Positions 17,078-55,990 of a stretch of 64,000 bases of DNA are shown piece after piece. Made by a program: the position numbers and the translations under genes. The stretch comes from Rhodobacterales bacterium (lineage in GTDB: Bacteria > Pseudomonadota > Alphaproteobacteria > Rhodobacterales > Rhodobacteraceae). The first letter of the stretch is position 1, and every line of letters starts with the position of its first letter. The notes beneath the pieces are model-generated. The model was given only the letters and a program-made list of their open reading frames with translations, searched no databases and was not told where the DNA came from. The stretch lies in contig JANNES010000016.1 in assembly GCA_031378845.1 (NCBI GenBank), positions 51,616 through 115,615 on the forward strand. The letters are read 5' to 3'.

Positions 17078-17134
17078 CTTCCCCTTGGCCCCTCGCCCCG
17101 GTATATCGCCCACAGCATAAAGCACGAGGGTGCC

Positions 17135-29283: not shown

Positions 29284-29352
29284 GGCCAGCTCCCACAAAA
29301 CCCCGTTCGGGACCTCTTATATAGACCATCTTCGGCCAAGACCAATGGCCAT

Positions 29353-29646
29353 TCACGCAATGTGACCGGCCAGAGTTCGAAGCAAAGCCAAGGCCGAAGC
29401 TGAAATTGCCTCCAAGTGCTCGGCGCTGTCCGCACCCGGTTCGGGCGGTGGTGCCATCAAGAGACTTCGCGCCGAAACACTGCCGTCGCCCCAGAATGGA
29501 TGAGACCGTCCGAATCGCTGACGATGCCGATCGGCGATCTCCGCTTCTTCGATCAATTTCGCAGCAAAGCCCGAACGGTCAGTTGCCTGAACTGTCGTCA
29601 GCACGCGAGCCAGCGCCAGGATATCGGAAACCAATATCGGTCGCAT
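29353..29646 (-). CDS. Hypothetical 97-aa protein immediately downstream of GTA g15
   Basis: ORF with ATG 3 nt after the g15 stop, same strand. I recognise no motif. Third-position GC is lower than in g15. Confidence 0.45.
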   Translation of the reverse strand: MRPILVSDILALARVLTTVQATDRSGFAAKLIEEAEIADRHRQRFGRSHPFWGDGSVSARSLLMAPPPEPGADSAEHLEAISASALALLRTLAGHIA

Positions 29647-29649
29647 CGG

Positions 29650-32600
29650 TCAGGCCAAGATTTCGACGCCACGGAACGGACCAGGGCCAAAGCGATCCGA
29701 TATCTGCGCAACTTCTATCCGGAACGGCACTGACACACCGTCAATCGCCTGCTGAGCTGCCGAATAAGACCAACTGGAAGAAGTCGCAAACGCCTCTGAC
29801 AGGATCGTCGCGCCAGACCGGACTCTGACCTGATAGATTTCGCTGTCTTCTCCCAATGGTACCTCGGACGACTGCCAACTGTCTCCGTCAATTCGCGTGC
29901 GCCGTATCCATGACAGGTCAAGAGCGTTTGCCAGCGTCCGGACCGCCTTGATGTGGGCGACCGGATACGGCCTGAGCCCGATCCCGTCAAAGGCTTCGAT
30001 ACGTGTAACAACTGTCGGATCGGCGTATCCGCGCCCTGCGACACCGACACGATAATAGCGCGCCAACCCGCGAGACGAGAGTGCAAGGTCGATCTGAACT
30101 GGGGCACGGTCCAGCAAGACAACTTCGCTTCCAGTCGGCCAGACCGGCGGCATGATGCCGTCTGTTCCCAATTGCCCGCGCAGCCGAAGGCTTAACTCAT
30201 AGGTATCGGGAGCAACGACCTGAGCCTCGACAAACTGAAACACCTCCCAATTGTCAGACGATCCGTCGCCGATCGCCATCGCATTCGACCCATTCAAAAC
30301 CGCATCAAGCGACGCACTGCTCAGCGTCCCACCGGTGACTTTGATCCGAAGTGGTGCGCCTCGGTCCAACACGCCAGGTCTTGCCGCCAAAAGCGGCGAT
30401 TGGGTTACGCCAATCACGGAAGGACCAGCAATCGTGCGGTTCAATTCATACCCAGCGTCTTCTGATGAAGACCAGATTGCCACGGTTCCCGGCCAAGGCG
30501 CCGCAGTCACGGCAACATGGGGCGCATGCTCAACTTCGCTGCCCGTCAGCAAAGGAAGATCCAAAAAGACTGGATACACTGGAACCGGCGCATAGAACTG
30601 ACGCGGAAAGACCCTCTCCTCGGCTCCGTCTGACAGACGGTATACGCCCGGCTCGACCCTTACCGCCTCGATCAACTGCGCATCGCCCTGCTCCACACGA
30701 TCGATCCGATAGAGCGAATTGTCGACACGAACAACGTCCCCCGCGCCCAAACCGAGTTTTGACTTCGGCAAGGCAAACCGGGCGGTATCGCGCGCCACCC
30801 TCGCTTCAGATAGCCATCGCTCAACCGTTGCCTGTGCTTCAGTCGAGGTCATTACCAGTGGCATCTCGCTCTGCGAGACGCCAAAACTGACCTCATCGGG
30901 AAAAATCGCTTCGGCCTGCCGGATTTCATAGTTTCCTTCGGCTTCCACAAAACCTAGCCGGACCTTACCGGCAATCTCGACTTCTGATGTGCGTGTTGTT
31001 TCAAATGTCCCGTCCAAGTCACTGGCCAAAGCAAGCAACTCGCGATCAAGCGTCGCGATGGCCCGGCCCGCGCGCATCTCAAAACGCAACGTGCCGTCGC
31101 GCTCAAGTGCATCAAACCCGTAGGCCAACATCAACGGCTGAAGCACTGAGCGTGCGGTCCCGGTTTCGGACTGCAAATAGCCCCGAACCACACCATAGAG
31201 CTTGCGCGCATCCAGCGTCGACATGCCGGAACGATCACAGATCTCGGCCACCACAGCTTCAAGACTTTGATTGGACACACGACCGTTCAGCCAATGCCCG
31301 CGTGTGTAATTCGGCCCGTCGCTCCAAACCTCGGTCTGCGTTGGAAATTCGGGGAACGGGCGCGCGTCCCATGCCCACGCATGAGCGCGTGCCATGTCAA
31401 CCATCGCTCCGCCATAAAGCGTCGACACGGGATTGTTTGCAGCATATGCAAAGTGTTGGGAATATGCGCGGTAGTATTGCATCTGGATCAGGTCGTCGCG
31501 ACGACCGTTTGAAAATCGCGGCAACGCTGACTCGGACGACTTGAGGTCGACGAACTTGTTGGGCTCGTTGCCACCTTTGTCGATCGCCGCGCAGCCATAC
31601 TCGGTGAAACGGATTGGCTTTGATCCCGGCACCCAAGCGGTCGGAAAAACACTGCGCACGTCCGCCTGCCGTTCGTGATGCAGGTTGGACCACCACGACT
31701 TCAGGTCCTTGTAGCGATAGACCCAAGGCTCGTTGTGAGCGCCATCCTCAATCTGCAGCCGTCTCTGCGCGGCGCGACCCTCGGGACTGTCATAGTACCA
31801 GTCGAACCCCTCGCCCCCGGCGATGTTCGCGCGCAGATAGTCCAGACTGTGGACGGATCCGTAACCTATATCAGCATGGGCATCACTGTCGCGCCAGTCC
31901 GAGACCGGCATGTAGTTGTCGATGCCAATGAAGTCCACATTCACATCGGCCCAAAGCGGATCGAGGTGGAAATAGACATTCCCGTCAGTCTGATGCCCAA
32001 AGTATTCTGTCCAATCAGCAGCATAGCTGATCTTGGTTGCTGGGCCCAGGATCCCGCGGACATCCGCCGCCAGCTGGCGCAGTGCTGCGACTGCGGGAAA
32101 AACATCCAGCGCACCACGGATCTGCGTCAGTCCGCGCATTTCCGACCCGATGCAAAAGGCATCCACGCCCCCTGCTGCCACACAAAGATGCGCGTAGTGC
32201 AAGATGAAACGCCGATACCCCCAATCCGCAACACCCGTATAGTTGACCTGACCGTTGGTCACCGTGAAATTACTCGGCGCCACAGTCCCGAAAAAAGCCG
32301 CCACTTCGCTCGCGGCGGTCGCGCTTCGGTCAGGACTGCCCGGTCTGCCCGGTGCGACTGACAATGTGATCCGCCCGCGCCACGGCAGGGCTGCCTGCTC
32401 TGCCACATCGCTGTAGGGGTCGGGAAGGTCGCTCCCCTCCAGCTGATCCATCAAGATGAACGGATAAAACATCACTTCCTGGCCCTGCAAGCGCAGCGCC
32501 GTGATGGCTTCGATCACCGACGCATCTGACGGTGTCCCGCCATAGACCGACCGACCCTCGGACAACGGAACAACTTCGGCCTGACCTCGCGTGACACCGC

Positions 32601-33546
32601 CGGCTCGCCATGTCTGGCCAACACCTTCAAAACCGTTCTGCACCACCTTGGGAAAAATATGGCATTCCCCACAGCGCAGGTCTGACCCAAACCACGACAC
32701 GACCAATGAGACCGACTGGCACAGCGGCAGTTCTTCGGTCAGCTGATCCAGCGATGTCGCAAAGTCCGTCTTGCCCGACGCACTGTGGACGTTGGCACTG
32801 CGACTGACGCCGCGCTCCAGATTGTAATGTACACGTGTTGTGGCCAGACCATATTCACCCGTCCCGGGGATAAGTGAAACGGCCTGAACTGCTGCAGCGA
32901 TGTCCGATGGCTCAGAATCCAGGCCACTTTTGGCGCGGCGCAGCACTTCAAATGTGAATTGGGGGACCCGGTTTCCATAAGGCGAAAGGTCAAGGTCCTC
33001 GATCACGACATACGCGATACCACGATAGGCGGGTGCCTTGCCTGTCCCCTCAACTGCCGAGATCTTTGGATCAGCAAGTTGATCTTCGGTGCCGGTGTAA
33101 ACTCTCAGATTCAAGGTCGAGGCGACGACTTCTGCGCCATCCGCCCAGATCCGACCGATCCGGGTAATCTCGCCTTCGCAAAGCGCAATCCCGACGCTGA
33201 TCGAATAGCTGAATTCCACTGTCTTGGGCTGAGGGGCGCCTTTGCCCCCACCTGACCGGGTTGAGTTTTCCTGAAACTCGGTAGCCCAGATCACTTGACC
33301 CGCTACCCGCATCCGTCCCCAGACTTGCGAGATCGCGGCGCCCTCACCAGCACTTGAGAGTCTCAGGCGGTCAACGCGTCCGATTTCGACGGCGTCCGAT
33401 CCAGCGCCCATCAATCGCTGGTCGATGACCCGCCCCAGAGTCGCCCCGATCGCGCGACCGATTACAGCGCCGGACAGACCGATAACAGTTCCGCCGAACC
33501 CGGCACCGATTGCAGCTCCCGCTGCGGATAGCAGTAGCGTCGCCAT
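29650..33546 (-). CDS. g15: GTA g15: host-specificity / baseplate multidomain tail protein
   Basis: 1298 aa. It has a Gly-rich hydrophobic N-terminus, a large glycoside-hydrolase-like central region and a phage-tail C-terminal domain. Its position is last in the cluster. Confidence 0.88.
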   Translation of the reverse strand: MATLLLSAAGAAIGAGFGGTVIGLSGAVIGRAIGATLGRVIDQRLMGAGSDAVEIGRVDRLRLSSAGEGAAISQVWGRMRVAGQVIWATEFQENSTRSGGGKGAPQPKTVEFSYSISVGIALCEGEITRIGRIWADGAEVVASTLNLRVYTGTEDQLADPKISAVEGTGKAPAYRGIAYVVIEDLDLSPYGNRVPQFTFEVLRRAKSGLDSEPSDIAAAVQAVSLIPGTGEYGLATTRVHYNLERGVSRSANVHSASGKTDFATSLDQLTEELPLCQSVSLVVSWFGSDLRCGECHIFPKVVQNGFEGVGQTWRAGGVTRGQAEVVPLSEGRSVYGGTPSDASVIEAITALRLQGQEVMFYPFILMDQLEGSDLPDPYSDVAEQAALPWRGRITLSVAPGRPGSPDRSATAASEVAAFFGTVAPSNFTVTNGQVNYTGVADWGYRRFILHYAHLCVAAGGVDAFCIGSEMRGLTQIRGALDVFPAVAALRQLAADVRGILGPATKISYAADWTEYFGHQTDGNVYFHLDPLWADVNVDFIGIDNYMPVSDWRDSDAHADIGYGSVHSLDYLRANIAGGEGFDWYYDSPEGRAAQRRLQIEDGAHNEPWVYRYKDLKSWWSNLHHERQADVRSVFPTAWVPGSKPIRFTEYGCAAIDKGGNEPNKFVDLKSSESALPRFSNGRRDDLIQMQYYRAYSQHFAYAANNPVSTLYGGAMVDMARAHAWAWDARPFPEFPTQTEVWSDGPNYTRGHWLNGRVSNQSLEAVVAEICDRSGMSTLDARKLYGVVRGYLQSETGTARSVLQPLMLAYGFDALERDGTLRFEMRAGRAIATLDRELLALASDLDGTFETTRTSEVEIAGKVRLGFVEAEGNYEIRQAEAIFPDEVSFGVSQSEMPLVMTSTEAQATVERWLSEARVARDTARFALPKSKLGLGAGDVVRVDNSLYRIDRVEQGDAQLIEAVRVEPGVYRLSDGAEERVFPRQFYAPVPVYPVFLDLPLLTGSEVEHAPHVAVTAAPWPGTVAIWSSSEDAGYELNRTIAGPSVIGVTQSPLLAARPGVLDRGAPLRIKVTGGTLSSASLDAVLNGSNAMAIGDGSSDNWEVFQFVEAQVVAPDTYELSLRLRGQLGTDGIMPPVWPTGSEVVLLDRAPVQIDLALSSRGLARYYRVGVAGRGYADPTVVTRIEAFDGIGLRPYPVAHIKAVRTLANALDLSWIRRTRIDGDSWQSSEVPLGEDSEIYQVRVRSGATILSEAFATSSSWSYSAAQQAIDGVSVPFRIEVAQISDRFGPGPFRGVEILA

Positions 33547-33990
33547 TCATTCGGCTCCTTCAGGAAAGGCAAATCGTCCCACAACGCGCCGGGCCCATGG
33601 CCGCGACAGCGGACTTTCAACGACCGCGTGACGCGAATAGGCATGGATAAAGGCGGCATCCGCGCCGACGCGCGACTGGATGCCTAGGTGTTTGGCTACA
33701 AAACCGTCCTGCATCCGGAACAATAAAACATCGCCCGGGGCAGCGTCCGTCGGCAGTTTGCGGCGCAAACACATTTCGGCAGCAGCGGTCAACACCTCAC
33801 CGGCAGCAGCCTCGTCCCAATCAGCGGTATACGCCGGGATAGGCAACGGCTCCTGGCCAATCGCTGCGCGCCACACGCCGCGCAAAAGACCCAGGCAATC
33901 CGTTCCGGCCCCCTTGACGCTGGCTTGATGGACATAGGGTGTCCCAATCCAGCTTCGCGCTTCGGTGACGACCTGACTTGCCAACGTCAT
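33547..33990 (-). CDS. g14: GTA g14: NlpC/P60-family cell-wall peptidase
   Basis: 147 aa with GTDCLGLLRGVW (catalytic Cys context) and a downstream His, typical of the phage NlpC/P60 peptidases in GTA clusters. Confidence 0.88.
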   Translation of the reverse strand: MTLASQVVTEARSWIGTPYVHQASVKGAGTDCLGLLRGVWRAAIGQEPLPIPAYTADWDEAAAGEVLTAAAEMCLRRKLPTDAAPGDVLLFRMQDGFVAKHLGIQSRVGADAAFIHAYSRHAVVESPLSRPWARRVVGRFAFPEGAE

Positions 33991-34898
33991 GACCCAAACC
34001 CGGGAACCGACGTTGGCGTGAAAAGGCTTTGGCCCTGTTGCGTGCGTTCAGGTTTTGGATAGGACGTCAGCCAATCCTCGCCCGGAATATGTGGGAACCC
34101 GCGGAAATTGGCAAAGTTTGTGAACTTCGTCCGACAGGTATCGGCGGCCTTGTCGCAACCCGCTTCCAATCGGATCAGATCACCTGACTGCAGGTTCGGC
34201 CCGATCGATTGCCAAAGCTCAATCTCGCGGCCCGCCCCTATGGTCCGGTCGTTCTTGATCAACCCGACAGAGCCTGTCGCCGCGCCAGACGTGACAACCA
34301 GCCGTCCACGCTCAAACCAGCGATCATCAAACCCGCCGAAGGCCGCAAACCGAAAGATTGTCCGATCCACCACGGTCTCGATTGCGCGACTGCTGAAGTA
34401 TCCCGGCAGCGTTAGATCAAAACGGCATTGCGTGTCTCCAAGGACTGCCGAACAACTCCGTTGATACACCCGCCCTTGCGGCAGGTTCAGCGCCTCGGTC
34501 AAGCCGCGCAACTCCGCCCGAAACGCACCCGCCGCGCGCGTGACTTCGCCCAAAGTGCCGCGGAATTGCTCCACCCTTTCTTCAGGATTTGCCCAGTTGA
34601 CCAACCAAGCACGCACCTCAGCAGCATCATAACGACCTGCCAAGAGATCCTCTTCGCTGACCGAAGCGTCCGACAGCGCACCGATGGCTTCGGTATTGTC
34701 GACGGCAAGTCCCGTCGTCTGCTGAACGGCCCGCGCGGTAAGACCGGACTCAGCCCGAAAGCTGACGCCATCAAACTCCAGAGTGCAGTCATGGTCGGTG
34801 AAGCCGAGCCGAAGCCCATCCCGCCGCGTGACCAGCCAAGCCCGACAAACAGTGGTTTGTCCGCCCGCGAGATGGGCAAGCAGATCCGCCGCGCTCAT
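33987..34898 (-). CDS. g13: GTA g13: DUF2163 / phage BR0599-like distal tail protein
   Basis: 303 aa in the conserved position, with TTVCRAWLVTRRDG...GFTDHD at the N-terminus as in DUF2163. Confidence 0.85.
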   Translation of the reverse strand: MSAADLLAHLAGGQTTVCRAWLVTRRDGLRLGFTDHDCTLEFDGVSFRAESGLTARAVQQTTGLAVDNTEAIGALSDASVSEEDLLAGRYDAAEVRAWLVNWANPEERVEQFRGTLGEVTRAAGAFRAELRGLTEALNLPQGRVYQRSCSAVLGDTQCRFDLTLPGYFSSRAIETVVDRTIFRFAAFGGFDDRWFERGRLVVTSGAATGSVGLIKNDRTIGAGREIELWQSIGPNLQSGDLIRLEAGCDKAADTCRTKFTNFANFRGFPHIPGEDWLTSYPKPERTQQGQSLFTPTSVPGFGS

Positions 34899-35539
34899 AG
34901 TCGCACCTCAAGGATCGGAACGTTCGGCACATCGCCCGCCTGGAATGAGGCAACCGAGGTTTGGATGCCGTCCGTGTCAAAACGGACTGGAACGTCAAAT
35001 TCAAACCCCGCAGTGACCCGCGCTCCGACACCCGGCGCCACCACAAAGACGACAAGGCCGCTCGTGATGTCGATGTTGTATTCAAGGGCCTCGATCTTGG
35101 GATCGCCTGCCACAGCGACCCGAACAGTGCCGGCAACCGGCTTGATGATCGGGCGTTCATAACTCTGTAGTCCCGACACATAGGTCTTGCGCAGCGCAAA
35201 ACTGGTCACGACGCCATCGCCAATTCCGATCGGCTGATCTTCGGGCTGAGGCGCCTTGGACGCGGGACAGGACTTGTAGTCCGACCAGTCCTTCCAGCGA
35301 AAGCCATAAATCTGCCCTCGACGCGCTTCGAAAAACGCAATCAGTGTCTCGATGTCTTGCAGGCTGCGCAGGCCCAATCCCGCGTCATATCGCCTCCGGG
35401 AATGCGCCCATGGGCTGTTTCGTTCTTCGTGACCATTGGCAAGCGTGACGATCTCGCTGCGCCGTTCGGGTCCACCGACCGACCCAAAGCTGAGATTGGC
35501 GGGAAACCGGATCTCGTGAAAATTCATGGCTTTGCTCAC
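34895..35539 (-). CDS. g12: GTA g12: DUF2460 (TIGR02217-like) distal tail protein
   Basis: 214 aa with FHEIRFPANLSFGSVGGPERRSEIVTL at the N-terminus, typical of DUF2460. Confidence 0.88.
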   Translation of the reverse strand: MSKAMNFHEIRFPANLSFGSVGGPERRSEIVTLANGHEERNSPWAHSRRRYDAGLGLRSLQDIETLIAFFEARRGQIYGFRWKDWSDYKSCPASKAPQPEDQPIGIGDGVVTSFALRKTYVSGLQSYERPIIKPVAGTVRVAVAGDPKIEALEYNIDITSGLVVFVVAPGVGARVTAGFEFDVPVRFDTDGIQTSVASFQAGDVPNVPILEVRL

Positions 35540-36189
35540 TTGTTGCGTTGACCGCGCGCCAGCGCCCGGCTGACTTGCGCGGCCACTTGACCCTGACTGC
35601 GTTGAAAGCTTTGCGCGTCCGGCGTCGAGATGTTCATAACCACCTGGACCGGACGTCCGCCTGACCCTGCCGACTGAACCCCTAGCCGACCGTCAGCGCC
35701 TCGGGTCAGTGGCATGATTGCCTCCGGCCCGGCTTCGCCCATCATGCCGCGCCCTCCCCGCATCGGGAATTGCACCGGGGACGAGACAATGCCGCCGTTT
35801 GCGAAAGGCACCACGCGCCCTTGCGAAAATGCGCCGCCCTTTTCAAACGGCATCAGACCGTTCAACGCCCCGGACACGCCTTGCGCCAAAAGTCCGCCCA
35901 GCGCACCTGTCACCGGCTTGATCGCGATGCCATAAACGGTGTCGATGATGCTTTGGGCGACGGTCTTCAACGCATCGCTTAACCGCATCCCGTCAAAAGC
36001 CAACCCGTCAAAAGCGCGCCGCAGCCCGCCGGACAACCCGGCCGACAAGGTGCCGACTTCCCGCCCGGTAAAGACGACCGTCTCGCGCATTCGCGCCAGC
36101 TCACCGTCAAAGCTCGCCACCATCTGGCCCGAGCTTGCCAATGTCGCTTCCAGTGACTGCAACTGTGCTTGCATGTCCTCGATTTCCAT
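35536..36189 (-). CDS. g11: GTA g11: short tail tape measure protein
   Basis: ORF 35536..36198 (GTG). The ATG at 36189 lies 8 nt after AAGAGG. The N-terminus is coiled coil and the C-terminal half is Gly-rich. Confidence 0.85.
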   Translation of the reverse strand: MEIEDMQAQLQSLEATLASSGQMVASFDGELARMRETVVFTGREVGTLSAGLSGGLRRAFDGLAFDGMRLSDALKTVAQSIIDTVYGIAIKPVTGALGGLLAQGVSGALNGLMPFEKGGAFSQGRVVPFANGGIVSSPVQFPMRGGRGMMGEAGPEAIMPLTRGADGRLGVQSAGSGGRPVQVVMNISTPDAQSFQRSQGQVAAQVSRALARGQRNK

Positions 36190-36391
36190 CGCGACCACCT
36201 CTTTTTGTATCGGGGAAAGCCGCGGCCAGTTCGTCCAGCCGCGATCGCGTCAGATGTGGCATCATCAGGTCGGCGCCCAGCATGATCCGCAGCTCAACCG
36301 GGGTCAGACGCCAGAATTCGTGCGGCGTCAGACCAAGAACATGCAAACCAGCGCGCACCAGGCCAGGCCAGTCGATCAGCCGTGTGCTCAC
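36107..36391 (-). CDS. g10.1: GTA g10.1: small tail-assembly-chaperone-like protein (rcc01693-like)
   Basis: 94-aa ORF with a GTG start overlapping the g10 stop (GTGA), in the -1 frame relative to g10. The conserved-looking part is DWPGLVRAGLHVLGLTPHEFWRLTPVELRIML. The 3' end overlaps g11 by ~83 nt. Confidence 0.7.
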   Translation of the reverse strand: MSTRLIDWPGLVRAGLHVLGLTPHEFWRLTPVELRIMLGADLMMPHLTRSRLDELAAAFPDTKRGGRDGNRGHASTVAVTGSDIGKLGPDGGEL

Positions 36392-36720
36392 GTCTCGCCC
36401 GGCACCGCAAAGGCACGCGCGAGCAACTCTGCCGCCGCCCGCGCTGCGGCCAATGGTCCGCCAGCTATCTCGACGGTCAAAAGGTCGCTCGCCTTACCTT
36501 GCCAGCCCCCGCCTCGCAAACCCGCGACGATCAGCGCCAGCACGTCGCGCGTCGAAAAGCTGCGCTGTTCAAACCGCTCAACCAGATCAATCAGTGACCC
36601 GGCACTCAAGGTCGTCTCCAGCTCGGCGAGAACCCCCAAGGTCAGCTTGGCGACATGCGGCTTGCCATCCAGGACGATGGTGACTTCACCGGCCCAAGGA
36701 TTGCCCATGGCGTCGCTCAC
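36388..36720 (-). CDS. g10: GTA g10: gene transfer agent family protein / tail assembly chaperone
   Basis: 110 aa with EVTIVLDGKPHVAKLTLGVLAELE, typical of GTA gp10-like proteins. Confidence 0.85.
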   Translation of the reverse strand: MSDAMGNPWAGEVTIVLDGKPHVAKLTLGVLAELETTLSAGSLIDLVERFEQRSFSTRDVLALIVAGLRGGGWQGKASDLLTVEIAGGPLAAARAAAELLARAFAVPGET

Positions 36721-37130
36721 AATGCGGTAAAGGTCAATGCGCCGGCCGAAGCCAGCGTCATCTCGTAGGTTGCCTCGCCGTTATAGGTTCCCGCATACTC
36801 GATGGCGGTCAGCTGGAAGGCTCCCTGCACCACGCCAAAGCTGGGGATGATCACCTGAAAGTCCGGCACCTCGCCGTCAAAAAACACTTGCCGCGCCCGC
36901 GCGTCGGTCGCCGCATCCCGAAAGACGCCCGACCCGGTGATCGATGCTGATTTGACCCCCGCACCTGCCAACAACTCGCGCCAGCCACCCTGGCTTTCGA
37001 GGCTGGTAACATCGACGGTTTCCGCATTGAAACTGATCCGCGTGGCGCGAAGCCCCGCAATCGTCTGGAACGTGCCGTCACCGATCATGTCAAGTTTGAC
37101 AAGCAGGTCCTTGCCGCTCTGAACAGCCAT
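36717..37130 (-). CDS. g9: GTA g9: major tail (tube) protein, TP901-1-like
   Basis: 137 aa with MAVQSGKDLLVKLD...FQTIAGLR, typical of phage major tail proteins of this family. Confidence 0.88.
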   Translation of the reverse strand: MAVQSGKDLLVKLDMIGDGTFQTIAGLRATRISFNAETVDVTSLESQGGWRELLAGAGVKSASITGSGVFRDAATDARARQVFFDGEVPDFQVIIPSFGVVQGAFQLTAIEYAGTYNGEATYEMTLASAGALTFTAL

Positions 37131-37210
37131 ACCATTTCTCCGATCTTTTCAACTATTGCGCCGCAAATGCGGGCAGTGACGGGACGAATTGTCCGATTAG
37201 TACAATTGAT

Positions 37211-37609
37211 CTACAGTTCCAGCCGAGCCGAAAAGGTCAGGTCCACACGCCGGACTTCGCCTTGATCGATCCGCGATGCGCGGGCGCGCTGAAACAGCAG
37301 ATGGACCAGCCGCCCTCGCGCCAAGACCAGTGTTGCCCCAACCAAGGCGTCCGATACCGCGACGGCAACGGTCTTTGCCGCCTGAAACCCGGAACCGTCT
37401 GAGATGACCGAAACCGTAAACCTGTGCTCAGCGCCGGGGCCACTTTTGTCCGAGACGTCACGAACCTCTTCTGGTCCGATCAAGACAAACGTTCCCACCC
37501 CCACCCCGGGTGGCAAAGCATCATGGATTGGCACACCCGCGAGCGGCGTCGCCGCGGTCAGGCGCTGATAGATCGCCGATTGAAGTGCGGCTGCTCCTGC
37601 ATAGCTCAT
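37211..37609 (-). CDS. g8: GTA g8: DUF3168 tail terminator/completion protein
   Basis: 132 aa at the conserved position between the adaptor and the major tail protein. Confidence 0.8.
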   Translation of the reverse strand: MSYAGAAALQSAIYQRLTAATPLAGVPIHDALPPGVGVGTFVLIGPEEVRDVSDKSGPGAEHRFTVSVISDGSGFQAAKTVAVAVSDALVGATLVLARGRLVHLLFQRARASRIDQGEVRRVDLTFSARLEL

Positions 37610-37944
37610 GCCGGCTCCTCCTCACGTGCAAAGCAGACAAGGTGACGCGCATCGCCATCGCGCTCGGTGACCGCAAGGATCCGAAAGACCCGCGCGCCTT
37701 CACGCAACCGTTGCTCCGGTACCGGCCGCGACGGCGCCCCGAACGGGGCAGCGCGAACGGTGATGCGGTAGGGCACGGTCGACAGGACGACATCTTCGCC
37801 GGCGGTATCGCGACCCGACCCCGGCAAAATCTCCGCCCAAAGCGTGCCAAGAATCATCCATGACTTGGCATAGCCCCCCGCATCGTCTGCAACCGTCATC
37901 GGCCCTTCCAAGGTCAGGGCGCGGTTTAGTTCCGGCAACTTCAT
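37606..37944 (-). CDS. g7: GTA g7: head-tail adaptor (head-tail joining) protein
   Basis: 112 aa at the conserved position, with 4-nt overlaps on both sides. Confidence 0.82.
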   Translation of the reverse strand: MKLPELNRALTLEGPMTVADDAGGYAKSWMILGTLWAEILPGSGRDTAGEDVVLSTVPYRITVRAAPFGAPSRPVPEQRLREGARVFRILAVTERDGDARHLVCFAREEEPA

Positions 37945-38540
37945 GATGCCCCCCCGCCCAGCACACGCACGGTACGCCAGCGGTCAATCAGCGTCAGCAC
38001 CGCCATCGGCAACCCTGCTTCGCGGATACCGCCATCGTGTCGGTGCTCATAGTATTCGGCTGCCAGCAGCAGAACCGCTTGTCCCAGATCCGCTGGAATC
38101 TCGGCCCAGACGCTGCCAAACCCGGCGTCAAAGATGATCTCGACGCGCCCTTCGCTTGGAATGGTCGGCAGCGATGTACCAAAGCCCGTCACTTTGGGCC
38201 TGTGTGTATCGGGCACCAACCGGTAGGACTGCGATGGGACGACGATGCTCCCGCCCAGCCCGTCATAAACAGTGACGCTGATCAGCTGTGTCACCGGCGC
38301 GATCGGCAAGGCTTGCTCCTGTCGCTGGCGCCAATCTTCCAATCGCCACAGGAATCGCCGCGCAATCAGCGCTTTTCCGATCCGGCCCTCGATGGTGGCC
38401 AGTGCCGCCCGCAGATAGCTTTCGATCAATGCATCTTGCAACGTGTCATCGGCAAAACCCGTCCCAAGACGCAGATGGTCTTTCAGCTGCTGCACCGGCA
38501 AGGCCAATGCTGGAACTGTCGTCTGCTCGATCAGTATCAT
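37941..38540 (-). CDS. g6: GTA g6: head-tail connector (gp6-like) protein
   Basis: 199 aa with VQQLKDHLRL...D..L..L..AA....E, typical of gp6-like connectors. Confidence 0.82.
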   Translation of the reverse strand: MILIEQTTVPALALPVQQLKDHLRLGTGFADDTLQDALIESYLRAALATIEGRIGKALIARRFLWRLEDWRQRQEQALPIAPVTQLISVTVYDGLGGSIVVPSQSYRLVPDTHRPKVTGFGTSLPTIPSEGRVEIIFDAGFGSVWAEIPADLGQAVLLLAAEYYEHRHDGGIREAGLPMAVLTLIDRWRTVRVLGGGAS

Positions 38541-38657
38541 CTTAACGCTCCGATCTCTCGAAAGCTCCCAAGTTCCACAAAATGGACGCGCACCCCATGC
38601 CGCTCGGACGGGGGGGAGCAGCTAGACGGCACGGTCATTCCGGCGCGCGTCCATCCA

Positions 38658-38681
38658 CCGGTCCCCAGTGACGGGGACCGG
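38658..38681 (-). promoter_or_regulatory. Perfect 9-bp stem-loop (CCGGTCCCC / GGGGACCGG, 6-nt loop) just downstream of the capsid gene g5
   Basis: It lies in the 157-nt g5-g6 gap, the largest intergenic gap inside the cluster. No U-tract follows on the transcribed strand. Confidence 0.4.
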
Positions 38682-38697
38682 ATAGCTCTGACAAAGG

Positions 38698-39894
38698 TCA
38701 GGTAAGGGCGAACTTCAGCAGCTTGATTGCCGCATAGTCCGTGACATCCCCGCCGACGCGCTTGTTGGCAAAGAACAACACGTTCGGTTTGGCCGAGAAG
38801 GGGTCGCGCAAGATGCGAATGTCCGGGCGCTCGGCGATGGTGTAGCCGGCCACAAAGTCACCAAACGCGATGGCGTGCGCATTGGCCGCGATGTCCGGCA
38901 TGTCCTCGCTGATCAGCACAGGATAGCCCATCAGACGTGCAGGCTCACCGGCCTGAAGGCTGTCACCCCACATGAAGCGACCGTCTGCATCCTTCATCTT
39001 GCGGACCGCACCCGCCGTCTTGGAGTTCATCACGAACGTCGCATTCGCACGGTAGTCCGCTGCCAGCGCATAGACGAGGTTGACGATGGTATCCGCCGCA
39101 TTGGTCGTGGGGAAGTCGGCCGCCGCACCTGACGGCACGTAACCGATGTTGCCCCAGGTCCAGCTTGCATTCGTCACTTTGGTCGGCAGCAAAAAGCCCT
39201 TGGGCTTGTCGATGCCGTCTCCATTGACGAAGGCCGCAGCCTCCGCCCGGATGAACCGCGTCGCAATCTTGCTCGACAGCCAGCCCTCGACGTCAAATGC
39301 GCTGTCGTCCAGCAGACGCTGGCTGGCCTTCGGCATCGCCGACAGTTCGTGCAGCTTGATCGAGATGCGCTCGATGATCGGTGTGCCGGTTTCTGCCTGC
39401 GCGCCGGTTTCCGTAGCCCAGCCGGAGCCGACCTCGGAGCGGTCGATCAGCACGTCATAGCTCGTCGCATCGACGTTCACGACGCTAGAGATCGCCCGCA
39501 GCGACGAGGTCGATACCAGCATCGAGCGGATCGTGTCAGCAGTCTGCGGGTCCACCAGATAGCCGCCGTCCGCTGCAATTCCGCTCGACAGCGCCTTGCC
39601 CTCCAGGACAAGACCGCGCAAGCCATCATCATCACCCGAACGCAGATAAGCGTTAAAGGCCTTCTTGTGCGGGGCTTCGGTTTCGGCATGGGCCGAAAGC
39701 GTCGGGCGTCCGTAGGTGGTCATCTTGCGGTCCAGCATGTTCAGTCGCTCTTCTTGTTGTTGCAACGATGTCTTCACTTCGGCTTGAAAGCCGTTCAGTT
39801 CCTTCAAAAATCCGGACATGGCGGATTTCACTTCCGCCCGCGGATCTGGGGACGAAGACGTAGCGTCCCGCCCCCGAGCCTCTTTCTCGGTCAT
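38698..39894 (-). CDS. g5: GTA g5: HK97-family major capsid protein
   Basis: 398 aa. The N-terminal delta-like coiled-coil region is followed by an HK97-fold capsid sequence. Confidence 0.92.
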   Translation of the reverse strand: MTEKEARGRDATSSSPDPRAEVKSAMSGFLKELNGFQAEVKTSLQQQEERLNMLDRKMTTYGRPTLSAHAETEAPHKKAFNAYLRSGDDDGLRGLVLEGKALSSGIAADGGYLVDPQTADTIRSMLVSTSSLRAISSVVNVDATSYDVLIDRSEVGSGWATETGAQAETGTPIIERISIKLHELSAMPKASQRLLDDSAFDVEGWLSSKIATRFIRAEAAAFVNGDGIDKPKGFLLPTKVTNASWTWGNIGYVPSGAAADFPTTNAADTIVNLVYALAADYRANATFVMNSKTAGAVRKMKDADGRFMWGDSLQAGEPARLMGYPVLISEDMPDIAANAHAIAFGDFVAGYTIAERPDIRILRDPFSAKPNVLFFANKRVGGDVTDYAAIKLLKFALT

Positions 39895-39935
39895 CGCGAT
39901 GTTTCCTTAAGGTTGGTCGTGAAAGGGCCGCGGCG

Positions 39936-40496
39936 TTACCGTTCGGCCAGGCTCCGGCGGGCGTCGTCGATAATCTCCGCCATGTCGCGCCAAGTCTCGG
40001 CAAGGGCGTCGGTTTTTGCCGCTACCCGTGCCTCTGCAAGCATGGGAAAGGTCACAAGCGACACTTCCCAAAGCTCCAGTTCCGAAAGGACTCGCTGGCC
40101 CTTTGCATCACGCTCGGCCCGCAAGGTGCGATAACCGATCGACAGCCCGTCAATTGCGCCCGCCGCCAGCAACGCCGCAGCCTCGCGCCCGCGTTCGACT
40201 TCGGGCAGGATGCGCCCTTTGACCCAAAGGCCAGTTGCATCCTCGCGGACCTCTTCCCAGACGCCAATGGGCTGTGCGGGATCGTGCTGCCAAAGCATCT
40301 TGACGCGCCGGCCCGCCGCAGCGAGCGCCTTCAGGCTTGTCGCATAGGCCCCCGACTGCACGATATCGCCGCTTTGATCACGTCGTCCGAACAGCGACGC
40401 ATAGCCCTCCAGGACGGTTCCGTCGCGGACGACGAGCCCCGTTTCGGGCTTTTGGAACTTTCGTTCCGGCGCCCCCCAGTCCTTCATGTCGGTCAT
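39936..40496 (-). CDS. g4: GTA g4: HK97-family prohead protease
   Basis: 186 aa with LEGYASLFGRRDQSGDIV..GA and VKMLWQHD...PIGVW motifs. Confidence 0.92.
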   Translation of the reverse strand: MTDMKDWGAPERKFQKPETGLVVRDGTVLEGYASLFGRRDQSGDIVQSGAYATSLKALAAAGRRVKMLWQHDPAQPIGVWEEVREDATGLWVKGRILPEVERGREAAALLAAGAIDGLSIGYRTLRAERDAKGQRVLSELELWEVSLVTFPMLAEARVAAKTDALAETWRDMAEIIDDARRSLAER

Positions 40497-40499
40497 CTT

Positions 40500-40745
40500 T
40501 CACCTCATCGCCGCTTGGATTATTGCCTCGGCACCTTGCGTCAGCAGAAACGCAGCTACCCCGTAAACCCCCAGCCAGATGCGTTTTTCCAGCCGCTCAA
40601 GCGCTGCGTCGATCAACGTCAGCCGGTATTCGAGCGCGCTCCAGCGTTCTTGCATGACCCGTTCATTCGCTTCGATCCGCGCTGTTGCCGCATCAAAACT
40701 GTCGTAGAGAAACCGCGACCCGGCACCGTCGCGCGGCGCCGTCAT
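40500..40745 (-). CDS. g3.5: GTA g3.5: small head-formation protein with C-terminal TM helix
   Basis: 81 aa between the portal and protease genes, as in RcGTA. Confidence 0.75.
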   Translation of the reverse strand: MTAPRDGAGSRFLYDSFDAATARIEANERVMQERWSALEYRLTLIDAALERLEKRIWLGVYGVAAFLLTQGAEAIIQAAMR

Positions 40746-41917
40746 TCTTCCTCTGCAAGGCGCGGCAGACCCAGCAGCATCCGTTTTTCCGACTGCGTCA
40801 GAAACTCAGCAGCCCCGATCCGAGCCCATTGCTGGTCACGCTCTTGCGCCAATGCCGGGATCTGGTCCAGATCGATCCGAAGTTCCGCCGCATGATCGGC
40901 AAAAGACGCCATCCAGTAAGACAGATCGGCAAGAACTTTGGTGGCAAGCGGCAAGACCGTCAGCCGGTAGAACGCCCGGTTCGCCTCTTGGTAATTGGCG
41001 TAAGTCGCGTCCCCCGGAATGCCCATCAACATCGGCGGCACGCCGAAAGCGATGGCAATCTCGCGCGAGGCTGACTCTTTGGTCTTCTGGAACTCCATGT
41101 CGGAAGGGCTGAACCCCATGGGCTTCCAATCCAGCCCCCCCTCCAGCAGCATCGGACGACCCGCATTGCGCGCACCTTGATGATGCGCCTCCATCTCGGA
41201 AACCAGGCGGTCGTACTGATCCGAACTCAGCGCCCCCTGGCCGTCCGCGCCCTTGAACACGATGGCCCCCGAGGGGCGGGCGGCGTTGTCGAGCAGCGCC
41301 TTTGACCATGCACTTGCCGAACCATGCACATCCAACGCTACCGCCGCCGCCTGCAAAGGCGAGAACCCATAGTGGTCGTCTTGCGGATGAAAGCTCTTCA
41401 AATGGCAGATCGGTTGCACCGGTGCCGTCATGTCGAACCGGTGTTTGCGCCCCGCCACTGTGTATTCGTAGGCAACAGGCCAGCCATCTGTGCCCGGAAC
41501 CACGTTGATGCGGTCCGACCGCAGCACATGCAGCTCTCCCGGCAACGCCCCGGCACCCGGCACCGCCTCGACATAGGCATTGCCCGCCAGCAGCAGATAT
41601 CCATACAATGCCTCGAACAGTTCGGCCCGCCCCTGTGCTGCGTTCGGCCGTTGAATCAAGTCCAACAGCGGATGCGTCTCATAGCGCCGCGCCGTATCTT
41701 GGCAGATCAGCGGCAGCGCAGCCGCAGCCTCGGCGATCATCTTGACCGCCCGAAATCCGACAGGATTGCCCAAGAAACCCGTTTTGGTCAGCGACACCGT
41801 GTCCCTTGGGCTCCAGGCGACGCGGCCCGAACTGCCCCATGCAACAACCCGGCCGGTGGCCGAGGCTTTTTGTTCGGGCACGGGCTGTTCCGCACGCCGC
41901 AAGAAATCAAACACCAT
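40742..41917 (-). CDS. g3: GTA g3: HK97-family portal protein
   Basis: ORF 40742..41947 starts at TTG. I prefer ATG 41917 (MVFDFLRR), 9 nt after GGGAG. The sequence is typical of portal proteins. Confidence 0.9.
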   Translation of the reverse strand: MVFDFLRRAEQPVPEQKASATGRVVAWGSSGRVAWSPRDTVSLTKTGFLGNPVGFRAVKMIAEAAAALPLICQDTARRYETHPLLDLIQRPNAAQGRAELFEALYGYLLLAGNAYVEAVPGAGALPGELHVLRSDRINVVPGTDGWPVAYEYTVAGRKHRFDMTAPVQPICHLKSFHPQDDHYGFSPLQAAAVALDVHGSASAWSKALLDNAARPSGAIVFKGADGQGALSSDQYDRLVSEMEAHHQGARNAGRPMLLEGGLDWKPMGFSPSDMEFQKTKESASREIAIAFGVPPMLMGIPGDATYANYQEANRAFYRLTVLPLATKVLADLSYWMASFADHAAELRIDLDQIPALAQERDQQWARIGAAEFLTQSEKRMLLGLPRLAEEE

Positions 41918-42036
41918 TTCGGATCGCTCCCATTTGTGCCAGGTCAAACCCCAAGCCTTTGCCGCCCCGCGCCCCCGGGGGCGCGGATAGCTGGTCGATT
42001 GTTGTCATGCCGTGTCGGCTTGGCGGGTCACCCCGC

Positions 42037-43383
42037 TCAGTATAGGCCCCGCATCTGCGGATTGCGGAACGCCTCGGCCGGGGCGACCATCAACTCGGTC
42101 AACGCCCAGACCAGCGCATCCATCCGGTCCGGACTGCCCTTGCCGCGAAACCCGCCCGCCGTCATCTGGCACATCTGTTCTTCAAGCTTTTGCAAGCCCC
42201 GCACATGTGCGACACGGCCCTGCTCATAAAGCGCGGCCACAGGTTCTGCCCGGATGGCCTTGTTCTTGGTCGCCGTGACGCGCTTGTAGGGGACCAGCGC
42301 ATCCACGGTCCGCAGCACGCTTTCCACCAGATCCCCCCCTTGGTTCACCTCGGCGACCAATCGGTCGGCCTTGTGGCGCTCCATTGCCGCGATGGCCGTG
42401 CGTGCCCACTGATCCGCCGAAACGCCTTGCACAGAGGCATCTTCGAGGACCACCGCGCGCCAATTCTGCGGCGCTCCTTCGGTGATCGCACCGACCACCA
42501 CGATCCCACAGGTGTCAGACGATTTCGTCGACGTCACCGGCGGGTCGATCGCCACGACAATCCGGCTCATCTGCGGCATCGTCTCGATCCTGCAGGCCTC
42601 AATCTGCTCAGAGGTCCACAGGGCGCCTTGCACATCCTCGATCAGCAAACCTTCCAGTTCTTGCTGACCTTGCCGCGTGCCGCCATAGCGGGTCTGAACT
42701 TCGGTCAGGAACGATGCCGCAAGATAGGCCCGGTTCGCCTCGGTCGGGGCGTGGGTGATGACGGTTGAGGGGTTCTTGAGGATCGCCTTCAACACAGCCA
42801 CATTTTTCGGCGTCGTCGTTACCACCTGACGCGGATGATCCCCCAGACGCAGCGCAAACTGCAACATGTCCCAGGCTTCCTCGGCGCGCTTCCACTTGGC
42901 CAACTCATCAACCCAGGCCGCATCGAATTGCGGCCCGCGCAGGCTTTCCGGCTCATGGGCCGAGTAGACTTGCGCGACTGCACCGTTTGGCCAGACCAGC
43001 CGCTTGCGCGTGGCTTCCCACGTCGGCATCCGGTCCGGTGGCGAACAGGCCAGTATCCCGCTGTCCCCGAACACCATGACCTCGCGTACCTGCTCAATCG
43101 TCTCACCGACCAGCGCGACGCGCTTGGACCGGCCGGGATCGATGGGCCGCGCGCCTTCAACCTCGGCCCGTACCCATTCCGCTCCGGCGCGCGTCTTGCC
43201 TGCGCCGCGCCCCCCCATGATCACCCACGATTTCCACACACCTTGTGGCGGCAATTGATGGGGGAGCGCCCAGAACTCGAACATCCACGGCAGCGACAAC
43301 AGCGCGTTGTCGCCCAGATCCGATAGAAACGCATCGACCTCATCCTGCGTCGCGGAGGCTAGCCAGGCGGCGCCCGATTTCAT
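42037..43383 (-). CDS. g2: GTA g2: large terminase (DNA-packaging ATPase/nuclease)
   Basis: ORF 42037..43467. Walker A motif GGRGAGKT. The start is uncertain (ATG 43383 or 43467), and both choices overlap the g1 3' end. Confidence 0.9.
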   Translation of the reverse strand: MKSGAAWLASATQDEVDAFLSDLGDNALLSLPWMFEFWALPHQLPPQGVWKSWVIMGGRGAGKTRAGAEWVRAEVEGARPIDPGRSKRVALVGETIEQVREVMVFGDSGILACSPPDRMPTWEATRKRLVWPNGAVAQVYSAHEPESLRGPQFDAAWVDELAKWKRAEEAWDMLQFALRLGDHPRQVVTTTPKNVAVLKAILKNPSTVITHAPTEANRAYLAASFLTEVQTRYGGTRQGQQELEGLLIEDVQGALWTSEQIEACRIETMPQMSRIVVAIDPPVTSTKSSDTCGIVVVGAITEGAPQNWRAVVLEDASVQGVSADQWARTAIAAMERHKADRLVAEVNQGGDLVESVLRTVDALVPYKRVTATKNKAIRAEPVAALYEQGRVAHVRGLQKLEEQMCQMTAGGFRGKGSPDRMDALVWALTELMVAPAEAFRNPQMRGLY

Positions 43384-43657
43384 CCCGCGCGGCGTCAAAG
43401 TCGAGCGCTTGGGCTCCGACGGCCCCAGTAACTTGTCTGCGGAGTTTTTCAACTCTGGTCCTTTCATCCATGACCATCTCGAAGGCGGTCTTCAGATCCT
43501 TGACGGCCTGGGTCGCGGCCTTGGCATCCCCAAACGCGCCCGCCTTGATACTGCGGACCGCGCGGACCAACTCCTCTGCCGTTTCGCGAAACAGCCCTTC
43601 CGTTTCCGCCAGCAGATCAACTGGCGAAACCTCTCCTTCGGAGAATTTGATTGTCAT
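43340..43657 (-). CDS. g1: GTA g1: small-terminase-like first gene of the cluster
   Basis: 105 aa, helical and charged, immediately upstream of and overlapping TerL. Confidence 0.75.
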   Translation of the reverse strand: MTIKFSEGEVSPVDLLAETEGLFRETAEELVRAVRSIKAGAFGDAKAATQAVKDLKTAFEMVMDERTRVEKLRRQVTGAVGAQALDFDAARDEIGRRLASLRDAG

Positions 43658-43759
43658 ATGTAGCTCGCACCCGCCTCATGCTGCCCGCACGAGAGAAATG
43701 AAAATGCGGCACCGGGGTCACCCCCAGGCCGCTCGCCCACTTCTTCTAGCATGCCACAA

Positions 43760-43788
43760 TCTATAGGTTGGAGCGGACGCAGAGTCAA
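43760..43788 (-). promoter_or_regulatory. Candidate sigma70-type promoter of the GTA cluster (-35 TTGACT, 17-nt spacer, -10 TATAGA on the minus strand)
   Basis: Read on the minus strand ~100 nt upstream of the g1 ATG. It is the only good hexamer pair in the 203-nt mltG-g1 gap. Confidence 0.45.
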
Positions 43789-43829
43789 GATAAAAACTCA
43801 ACGTGATCAATGCCTTGCTGTGCGGCGCG

Positions 43830-43844
43830 TTAACCGCTTGTTAA
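43830..43844. promoter_or_regulatory. Perfect CtrA-type box TTAA-N7-TTAA (TTAACCGCTTGTTAA)
   Basis: Exact match to the CtrA full-site consensus. It is centred ~50 bp upstream of the candidate -35 and 16 nt downstream of the mltG stop. Confidence 0.55.
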
Positions 43845-43860
43845 CCCTCGTGCCCCGGCG

Positions 43861-50619: not shown

Positions 50620-50711
50620 CAGTGACTCCCTCTCCCGGTGATCACCCGAATATCCCGCCAGCCCGCGTGACGCAATCGTTCCGACACACCTCCCACAACC
50701 CCGGCAAAGCC

Positions 50712-54543: not shown

Positions 54544-54562
54544 TGACCCAATCTGACCCAAT
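54544..54562 (+). repeat. Tandem direct repeat TGACCCAAT-c-TGACCCAAT flanked by CAATTG
   Basis: 10-bp period, in the tig/Hint-gene divergent region ~55 nt upstream of the proposed Hint-gene start. Confidence 0.5.
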
Positions 54563-54615
54563 TGTTTCCGGTTTGCGGTGATATCCGGGCGTCGAAATGG
54601 TTGAGAGGACGGCCC

Positions 54616-55683: not shown

Positions 55684-55768
55684 TGGTGCGGGTGGAGGGA
55701 CTTGAACCCCCACGCCTTGCGGCGCCAGAACCTAAATCTGGTGCGTCTGCCAATTTCGCCACACCCGC
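55684..55768 (-). tRNA. tRNA-Leu (anticodon UAG), type II with long variable arm, CCA encoded
   Basis: Hand-folded: acceptor GCGGGTG/CACCCGC, anticodon stem CCAGA/TCTGG with loop TTTAGGT, variable arm CGCC-GCAA-GGCG, T-loop TTCAAGT. Confidence 0.9.
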
Positions 55769-55990
55769 AACCTGCGCGTCGGTTTTTGTGCCTTCGCGAC
55801 AGGTTTGACCTGCCGCTGGACCACTCCCCCGCTCAGCCGCGCCGTTCTAGCAAAGCCGCAAGGTTGACGCGAGCAGAAAAGCGGCCAAGGCGCAGGCCGC
55901 CGCACCTGTCGGGAAAATGCACGACCAGCACCCCATTCTTGCCACATTGGACGCCGAAAAACACTGGCAAGGTGTGCAAGGGTTGTGCCA

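Follow-up and report, generated by a model that had tools for sequence, protein, structure and literature searches.

The closest described relative of the system considered here is the gene transfer agent (GTA) of Rhodobacter capsulatus SB1003, RcGTA (rcc01682-rcc01699; PDB 6TBA, 6TEH). The subject of this report is a cluster of the same 17 genes plus g16, in the same order, on the minus strand of a 64-kb stretch of Rhodobacterales DNA (contig JANNES010000016.1; the whole of this stretch is referred to as the window). In R. capsulatus the cluster is bordered by yceG/mltG upstream and by cysE1, an acyltransferase gene and cdsA downstream, and its neighbours in the window are the same; the two loci differ in that cysE is separated from g16 by a 54-nt gap in the window and overlaps it by 59 bp in R. 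capsulatus. The species also differ: the closest relative of the window's g9 tail tube protein (95% identical) is found in a metagenome-assembled genome (MAG) of an uncultured Rhodobacterales bacterium, and the next closest (85-88%) in Falsirhodobacter, Cypionkella and Gemmobacter. The control regions of the two clusters align base-for-base in the promoter, the region bound by the regulator GafA, a leader hairpin with its U-tract and a CTCGTGC..GCATGAG box. As a system, the GTA cluster is textbook; what appears to be new is a conserved leader element in its control region, probably a terminator.

Two other control systems bear comparison. CcGTA of Caulobacter crescentus (PMC11150451) is a homologous alphaproteobacterial GTA with an activator homologous to GafA, GafY/GafZ standing in Caulobacter for the single fused GafA of Rhodobacterales. 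GafZ, a homologue of the C-terminal domain of GafA, works as an antiterminator: it is loaded at an element between -35 and -10 and allows a terminator downstream of the first gene to be passed (PMC11150451). CcGTA resembles what is predicted for the RcGTA type in having an activator element between -35 and -10 and a terminator near the operon start that has to be bypassed; its terminator, terGTA, consists of three 150-bp GC-rich repeats after the first gene, whereas the window has a compact hairpin and U-tract before the first gene. Antitermination has been demonstrated for GafZ; for RcGTA-type clusters it is a proposal, and antitermination by GafA has been the subject of speculation in the Caulobacter study (PMC11150451) and in a Bartonella preprint (bioRxiv 10.1101/2024.11.20.624540). 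The lambdoid late control region, PR'-QBE-tR' with its regulator Q, shares with the arrangement predicted for the window a strong promoter, a close intrinsic terminator, a DNA site for the regulator between -35 and -10, a conserved initially transcribed sequence and one long structural operon downstream. The likeness is one of architecture only: the leader in the window is only about 95 nt long, and Q homology and a sigma-dependent pause are known from the lambdoid side only.

An RcGTA-type operon at a shared chromosomal site

Open reading frames (ORFs) of the window were listed and their translations searched with Pfam and NCBIfam profiles. Seventeen co-directional ORFs on the minus strand (29650-43657), bounded by the g1 ATG (43657) and the g15 stop (29650), are the RcGTA head-tail genes g1-g15 in the canonical order that the initial annotation had given them. 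Sixteen of the 17 have a family match, g1 being the exception, and the matches are essentially full-length across the cluster. Comparison with RcGTA g1-g15 profiles, which that annotation had put forward as a check, places the GTA-specific equivalog models NF048001, NF058675 and NF048004 far above their cut-offs (Table 1). All frames are open as reported, with every gene at full length and without frameshifts; the Walker A motif GGRGAGKT is found in the g2 translation; and the tape measure, said to be ~217 aa long, has that length when read from ATG 36189. Two statements needed amendment. The cluster had been called complete, and all 17 ORFs are indeed present, but an 18th gene, g16, had been overlooked; with it the cluster occupies 29353-43657, or 14,305 bp. 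The 97-aa ORF in question is taken to be g16 because it begins 3 nt past the g15 stop, matches DUF7742 and repeats the arrangement in R. capsulatus, where g16 (rcc01699) begins 3 bases past the g15 stop and is co-transcribed with g15 (PMC9552610). Where related loci have g16, it always lies between g15 and cysE, and it is lost in loci with a g15-cysE gap of only 60-200 nt. The assertion that most junctions are 4-nt overlaps was too strong: such overlaps make up 8 of the 16 junctions among the 17 ORFs. Of the other eight, four have 41-157 nt between the genes, two bring the genes together end to end (0 and 3 nt), and in two the overlap is longer, at 44 nt for g1/g2 and about 83-92 nt for g10.1/g11.

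When the concatenated window proteins were compared with PDB sequences in one phmmer search, nine of them matched chains of the solved R. capsulatus particle (6TBA, 6TB9 and 6TEH), mostly over their full length and with scores of 118-1715 bits. Roseophage vB_DshS-R4C (8GTC) is a distant second, the megatron scoring 805 bits there against 1715 bits to 6TBA. This phage and related siphophages with RcGTA-like tails have homologous distal tail, hub and megatron proteins (150-805 bits); vB_DshS-R4C is, however, a true virus with a full genome, its similarity falls far below that of RcGTA, and it is without the conserved host chromosomal context. The capsid protein reaches no more than 43% identity in a search of 50,697 phage records, and an exact search for it in public assemblies gave no hit; the similarity of g11 to phage tape measures (600-1900 aa) is confined to their C-terminal ends.

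The g9 protein was used to scan one genome per species, yielding 80 Rhodobacterales loci (g9 identity 78-95%) that were then searched by tblastn with all window proteins. The order fabF-mltG, g1 to g15, (g16), cysE recurs in most of these loci, across many genera, and R. capsulatus, with yceG preceding g1, has the same arrangement (PMC9552610). In the window, mltG (yceG), fabF and fabG-fabD lie upstream of the cluster, with a probable, unconfirmed acpP ORF between fabF and fabG; g15 is followed by g16, cysE, genes for a PlsC-type acyltransferase, cdsA and a CDP-alcohol phosphatidyltransferase. The rest of the window is made up of core genes, among them those for aconitase, class II ribonucleotide reductase, enolase, pgk, aldolase, pyruvate dehydrogenase E1/E2, ribosomal proteins S6/L9, trigger factor and glnB-glnA. 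G+C content is ~61% throughout; the fractions for cluster genes (0.59-0.65) and flanks (0.58-0.63) bear out the earlier statement that the composition is that of the flanking housekeeping genes, and G+C at third codon positions (GC3) in the cluster is slightly below that of highly expressed core genes. The ratio of nonsynonymous to synonymous divergence (dN/dS) relative to the closest MAG is 0.02-0.09 for g6-g14, with 0.32 for g10.1 (which overlaps g11), and 0.02-0.10 for the flanking cysE, plsC and cdsA; dS is saturated (about 1-2), so that these values are rough.

The competing view, that an HK97-like siphophage lost its early genes and that its head-tail module persists here as a degraded or cryptic prophage, can appeal to the phage ancestry of every gene, to the roseophage R4C homologues of distal tail, hub and megatron, and to the listing as viral, in IMG/VR, of at least 120 contigs with the loop motif of the g5-g6 element (described below), many of them of GTA-cluster size. 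It has to contend with the occupation of the same chromosomal site across many genera, with host-like composition, with dN/dS well below 1 and an absence of frameshifts, with matches to GTA-only equivalog models, and with the distance to the nearest phage capsid. Nor are the expected phage functions to hand: integrase, repressor and replication genes are absent from the annotated genes of the 64-kb window, whose annotation also yields no lysis cassette in or beside the cluster; a search for att sites found no bracketing direct repeat, only short chance matches; and the single tRNA gene of the window is 12 kb from the cluster rather than adjacent to it. The initial annotation's list of missing functions (integrase, att-like repeat, repressor, replication module, holin/endolysin) thus stands for the whole 64 kb. 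A prophage origin of this kind is largely refuted, and we assign it next to no probability. That the cluster is a domesticated GTA and not a prophage is supported by gene content, equivalogs, particle matches, synteny, composition, dN/dS and the absent phage functions; it is a new member of the known RcGTA kind, and its assignment to an already known family was correct. We consider it very likely that the region is an RcGTA-type head-tail operon, g1-g16, vertically inherited at the mltG/yceG-cysE1 site and kept intact by selection.

Whether an intact operon makes particles is a separate matter. The prediction of particle production from the intactness of the cluster alone goes beyond the evidence, because gafA, head spikes, tail fibres and lysis genes are also needed, all of them unlinked and none of them in the window. 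The absence of all these partners from the window is what would be seen if the GTA were intact but silent or incomplete, its accessory or regulatory loci missing or its induction lacking, and retained, maybe, for some other benefit. Many Rhodobacterales that carry a complete cluster are not known to produce GTAs. The dispensability and frequent loss of g16 (PMC9552610) point in the same direction. On the other side, no gene is truncated, purifying selection acts on them much as on the neighbouring housekeeping genes, and a conserved GafA-type promoter, leader and g5-g6 element would be hard to explain if the operon were never expressed. Silence of the GTA in this sense seems to us distinctly improbable, and the reading as a selected, vertically inherited GTA operon is retained in what follows.

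A terminator-like element in the operon leader

Alignment of the mltG-g1 spacer of 32 loci resolves the control region into conserved blocks. The promoter is conserved in these loci as CTTGACttt-gCG..CGgtc....gTAga and aligns base-for-base with pGTA1 and pGTA2, probes used in R. capsulatus electrophoretic mobility shift assays (EMSA). The sole probe bound by GafA is pGTA2, which holds the -35/-10 spacer, the -10 and a transcription start site (TSS) supported by RNA-seq (PMC6363796); pGTA5, whose start is a CATGCT box, was not bound (Fogg 2019). By alignment with the GafA-bound fragment, the promoter in the window would be of the GafA type. Beyond it, and with the position of the TSS taken from R. 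capsulatus, come the initially transcribed box, the 3' half of which can pair with the U-tract and so lengthen the terminator helix, and then the intrinsic-terminator-like element itself. The hairpin lies within the 5' untranslated region, because the GafA-bound pGTA2 contains a TSS that is upstream of the hairpin.

Across loci, the element consists of a GC-rich hairpin of variable sequence followed immediately by TTTTTCATTTC. Folding each sequence separately finds a GC hairpin with a direct T run in 50 of 52 loci (-12 to -27 kcal/mol; median -21), and 48 of these 50 hairpin sequences are distinct. A covariance model of the element, R1, has one sense-strand match per locus, upstream of g1, for a total of 55; its only other matches are two weak antisense ones that overlap sense matches. 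Pairing in the outer helix stands at 98.6%, GC/AU swaps occur in it, and double changes are seen at all 18 pairs of the model; none of 500 shuffles reaches the observed covariation score, and no slid control comes near it. Because of indels, the consensus that RNAalifold derived for the GC stem from a plain MAFFT alignment was poor, and per-sequence folding and covariance-model alignment were used in its place. A consensus promoter/terminator scanner missed the GTA promoter, the -10 of which ends in A, as well as the leader hairpin, which is bulged. No Rfam family matches the leader element.

The same element is found in the R. capsulatus leader. The EMSA probes pGTA1-4, given in the supplement to Fogg 2019, together cover the 174 bp that precede R. 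capsulatus g1. Read as one sequence, they have the promoter and the CATGCTAGGAGAGGTGGGCAA box in common with the window, as well as a hairpin GCGCCCGCGGGTGACCGTGTGCGC (-15 kcal/mol) with TTTTTTCATTTG after it and the CTCGTGC..GCATGAGAGGCGGG box; the hairpin element falls within pGTA3. The words terminator and hairpin appear neither in Fogg 2019 nor in the 2022 GafA paper, and no description of a stop signal for transcription in the leader was found in the searchable literature. The helices of the CTCGTGC box are 81-89% paired with mostly one-sided variation, which amounts to modest structural support; the box may form another hairpin, open a short upstream ORF, or do both. The ATG inside it opens, in many loci, a 7-9-codon upstream ORF that ends at or overlaps the g1 start; in Ruegeria this ATG is in frame with g1.

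The simplest alternative is that hairpin and T run terminate transcription of mltG/yceG and have no part in GTA control: the hairpin is downstream of mltG on the same strand, and reverse transcription-PCR in R. capsulatus detected no transcript spanning yceG and g1 (PMC9552610). The hairpin is also, however, downstream of the conserved -35/-10 and of the fragment bearing the TSS, so that GTA transcripts must cross it. Moreover, pGTA1 opens, ahead of the promoter, with a distinct CCGGGGTTTTTTCTTTTTC tail that is apparently yceG's own terminator, and the element stays beside g1 in loci in which 1-3 kb separate mltG from g1; loci lacking an adjacent mltG, in which the orientation of the ORF upstream of the leader was judged roughly by GC3, contribute weak support. 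A terminator serving only the upstream gene is unlikely on these grounds. We favour the interpretation that the leader element is probably a functional terminator of GTA transcripts; such a terminator is the cis element that the idea of GafA as an antiterminator predicts. That GafA-dependent read-through is the mechanism by which it is passed is, at this stage, close to a toss-up.

Upstream sites, the g5-g6 element and neighbouring genes

The CtrA-type box, a perfect palindrome, is located 16 nt past the mltG stop, and is the only TTAA-N7-TTAAC site in 64 kb, where 0.03 are expected. Matches to the box with at most one mismatch occur at -205 to -161 in 19 of the 32 related loci, compared with 0.18% of background windows; CtrA may accordingly be predicted to bind the -187 box, judging from its sequence. 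The R. capsulatus probes show the yceG terminator tail where the window has this box, and CtrA binding has gone undetected there. Between the CtrA box and the -35 element lies an IHF-core-like motif, which is found as an exact YAA-N4-TTGAT at -150 to -163 in 9 of the 32 loci and in 0.08% of background windows. IHF acts upstream in CcGTA, co-activating the Caulobacter GTA promoter (PMC11150451); the motif at -160 in the window is a weak lead to a comparable arrangement.

The 157-nt gap between g5 and g6 contains two features. The first is a structured element in which a C-rich loop, GCTGCTCCCC(C)TCCGTCCGAGC, sits on two stacked helices; the loop hardly varies from genus to genus. In a plain MAFFT alignment the inner helix shows 96.5% pairing and covaries through UA/CG swaps. 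A covariance model of the element, R2, finds one copy per locus in 53 loci and the window, always in the g5-g6 gap and on the sense strand; about a dozen loci with a short g5-g6 gap are without it. Rfam has no match for the g5-g6 element. That it sets the head:tail mRNA ratio, by way of processing, stability or Rho-dependent attenuation, is only a guess. The second feature, a GC-rich hairpin just past the capsid gene, is strong, variable in sequence and in the same place in nearly all loci; we infer that it serves as an mRNA 3' stabiliser or a processing barrier. The loop motif of the structured element is present in at least 120 IMG/VR contigs, many of them about 13-15 kb long, the size of a GTA cluster, and none longer than 19 kb. 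In many of these contigs the motif is about 5 kb from one end, where a GTA cluster would have it, so that mislabelling of GTA clusters as viruses seems to be widespread in IMG/VR.

Coordinates of genes and control features are collected in Table 1. The C-terminus of g10.1, where it overlaps the g11 start, is non-conserved. The cysE1-like gene is a host gene, linked to the cluster by position (it lies downstream of g15/g16 in most loci) and by function, and is not a particle component; the R. capsulatus cysE1, which has its own transcript, influences both biofilm formation and the receipt of GTAs (PMC9552610). The gap between the large terminase and portal genes (41948-42036) contains two GC hairpins that lack T runs, GCGGGGTGACCCGC and CGCGCCCCCGGGGGCGCG, the latter a perfect palindrome. 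The closest relative, MAG Rhodobacterales VAR_61_metabat_167 (L001, 5090-8983), has an in-frame stop in the g15 alignment that the window's g15 does not have, and which is either an assembly error or a mark of a pseudogene. A 456-aa ORF at 49255-50625 was considered as a nearby gafA and rejected, since it matches no family and runs antisense to evident fabG and fabD genes. Farther away, two Hint_2-domain proteins (54562-55683 and 55985-56479, plus strand) flank tRNA-Leu (55684-55768, minus strand), with no evident link to the GTA. The longest ORF at 16235-18385 (plus strand) encodes 716 aa, of which only residues 336-629 form a class I tRNA synthetase (Trp/Tyr type) domain; its start may be over-extended, or the protein may have an N-terminal extension.

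Table 1. Genes and control features of the GTA cluster and its cysE1-like neighbour, in the direction of transcription; bit scores to Rcc proteins and 6TBA chains are from the phmmer search
Feature	Position in window	Strand	Remarks
CtrA-type box, TTAAC-N6-GTTAA (TTAACAAGCGGTTAAC)	43829-43845		187 nt upstream of g1 ATG
IHF-core-like motif CAAGGCATTGAT	43806-43817	-	antisense reads ATCAA-N4-TTG; about 160 nt upstream of g1
GTA operon promoter	43760-43788	-	-35 TTGACT (43783-43788), 17-nt spacer CTGCGTCCGCTCCAACC, -10-like TATAGA (43760-43765)
Initially transcribed box CATGCTAGAAGAAGTG	43738-43753	-	nearly invariant in 52 loci
Intrinsic-terminator-like element	43694-43732	-	hairpin GCGGCCTGGGGGTGACCCCGGTGCCGC (43706-43732), then ATTTTCATTTCT (43694-43705); ends 37 nt before g1 ATG
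Box CTCGTGC-N5-GCATGAG	43675-43693	-	just before g1 ribosome-binding region; conserved in most loci
g1, small-terminase-like	43340-43657	-	105 aa
g2, large terminase	42037-43383	-	448 aa from ATG 43383; ORF open back to 43467; Terminase_6N 1.6e-27, Terminase_6C 1.2e-18
g3, HK97-type portal	40742-41947	-	likely start ATG 41917; PF04860 2.7e-83; TIGR01537 209 bits; 637 bits to RcGTA portal Rcc01684 (PDB 6TBA)
g3.5, GTA head formation protein	40500-40745	-	81 aa; NF048001 (RCAP_rcc01685 family) 108 bits, cut-off 50
g4, HK97 prohead protease (S78)	39936-40496	-	PF04586 4.3e-30; TIGR01543
g5, HK97-fold major capsid protein	38698-39894	-	TIGR01554 344 bits; 613 bits to Rcc01687 (PDB 6TB9)
GC-rich hairpin CCGGTCCCC-GTCACT-GGGGACCGG	38658-38681	-	17 nt past capsid stop; without U-tract
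Structured g5-g6 element	38582-38654	-	C-rich loop TCTAGCTGCTCCCCCCCGTCCGAG (core 38602-38622)
g6, head-tail adaptor (connector family)	37941-38540	-	TIGR02215 154 bits; 200 bits to Rcc01688
g7, stopper/head completion protein	37606-37944	-	PF05521 8.4e-22; 118 bits to Rcc01689
g8, tail terminator (tail completion protein, former DUF3168)	37211-37609	-	PF11367 6.4e-24; 133 bits to Rcc01690
g9, tail tube protein (TP901-1-type)	36717-37130	-	PF06199 4.2e-47; 223 bits to Rcc01691
g10, tail assembly chaperone (TAC_11)	36388-36720	-	PF11836 (GTA-gp10) 1.9e-28
g10.1, second tail assembly chaperone (TAC_6, rcc01693 family)	36107-36391	-	PF09550 4.4e-22; TIGR02216 60 bits
g11, short tape measure	35536-36198	-	217 aa from ATG 36189 or 220 aa from GTG 36198; NF058675 (RcGTA_tape) 332 bits, cut-off 220
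g12, distal tail protein (DUF2460)	34895-35539	-	TIGR02217 276 bits; 331 bits to Rcc01695
g13, baseplate hub (DUF2163)	33987-34898	-	TIGR02218 315 bits; 371 bits to RcGTA hub chain 6TBA_7A
g14, NlpC/P60 cell-wall peptidase	33547-33990	-	TIGR02219 163 bits
g15, megatron (baseplate multidomain protein)	29650-33546	-	1298 aa; NF048004 1843 bits, cut-off 800; full-length match to RcGTA chain 6TBA_8A, 1715 bits
g16 (DUF7742)	29353-29646	-	97 aa; PF24891 82.7 bits, cut-off 27
cysE1-like serine O-acetyltransferase	28474-29298	-	TIGR01172 233 bits

Predicted mode of action and its meaning

Studies of R. capsulatus and Caulobacter suggest the following course of events, in which the antitermination step is our own proposal. 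The CtrA phosphorelay would switch on GafA in a small part of the stationary-phase population, and GafA would engage RNA polymerase at the -35/-10 spacer and TSS of the GTA promoter. Transcripts would have to cross the hairpin and U-tract about 20-60 nt into the leader, and expression would then depend on GafA acting as a Q-like processive antiterminator; the same terminator would also keep leaky initiation from reaching the operon. CtrA may, in this lineage, bind the perfect box at -187 as well. TerS (g1) and TerL (g2) would fill small HK97-fold heads with roughly 4-kb pieces of random host DNA by a headful mechanism and, because the heads take pieces of this size, the 14.3-kb operon could not transfer itself. 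The short 217-aa tape measure would set a short tail, and g12-g15, including the g14 peptidase, would form the baseplate with which the envelope of the recipient is breached. Unlinked genes would be needed for release, head spikes and tail fibres.

Several facts weigh against this account, in addition to the saturation of dS. Within the 64-kb window there are no gafA, rcc01866-like, ctrA/cckA/chpT, head-spike (ghsA/B), tail-fibre or holin/endolysin genes. The terminase role of g1 is presumed from its position and from genetics in R. capsulatus, where g1 is the small terminase (PMC9552610); it has no curated family, with no match in Pfam, NCBIfam or PHROG, and its 326 homologues of about 105-108 aa, in Paracoccaceae, are all unnamed, although a tblastn search finds a g1 homologue in 50 related loci, between mltG/yceG and the large terminase gene wherever the locus includes mltG. 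GafA has been described in R. capsulatus as an activator working through the omega subunit of RNA polymerase, not as an antiterminator, and the case for a terminator and an antitermination step is built from sequence and covariation. CtrA, finally, gave no shift in vitro with the R. capsulatus RcGTA promoter (PMC6363796). The same 633-bp fragment was not shifted by GafA either, and the 50-bp probes of that study ended at -174 (PMC6363796); because of these two circumstances, a CtrA box at -187 could still be at work in other lineages. The composite proposal that leader terminator and g5-g6 RNA are conserved across Rhodobacterales including R. capsulatus, that GafA gates the GTA by Q-like antitermination, and that CtrA acts directly through a site at about -187 in part of the order is, taken as a whole, evenly poised between right and wrong.

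The cluster adds one intact RcGTA-type member from an uncultured or poorly sampled Paracoccaceae lineage, and is in that respect useful mainly for annotation. The control region has more to offer. Two groups have proposed that GafA is an antiterminator without having a cis element to point to; the conserved leader hairpin, which is already within the published probe sequences of the model organism, makes that proposal concretely and cheaply testable. The g5-g6 element and the CtrA box offer further ways into the head:tail expression ratio and into wiring specific to the lineage, and the leader terminator could explain how a lethal operon is kept silent in >99% of cells.

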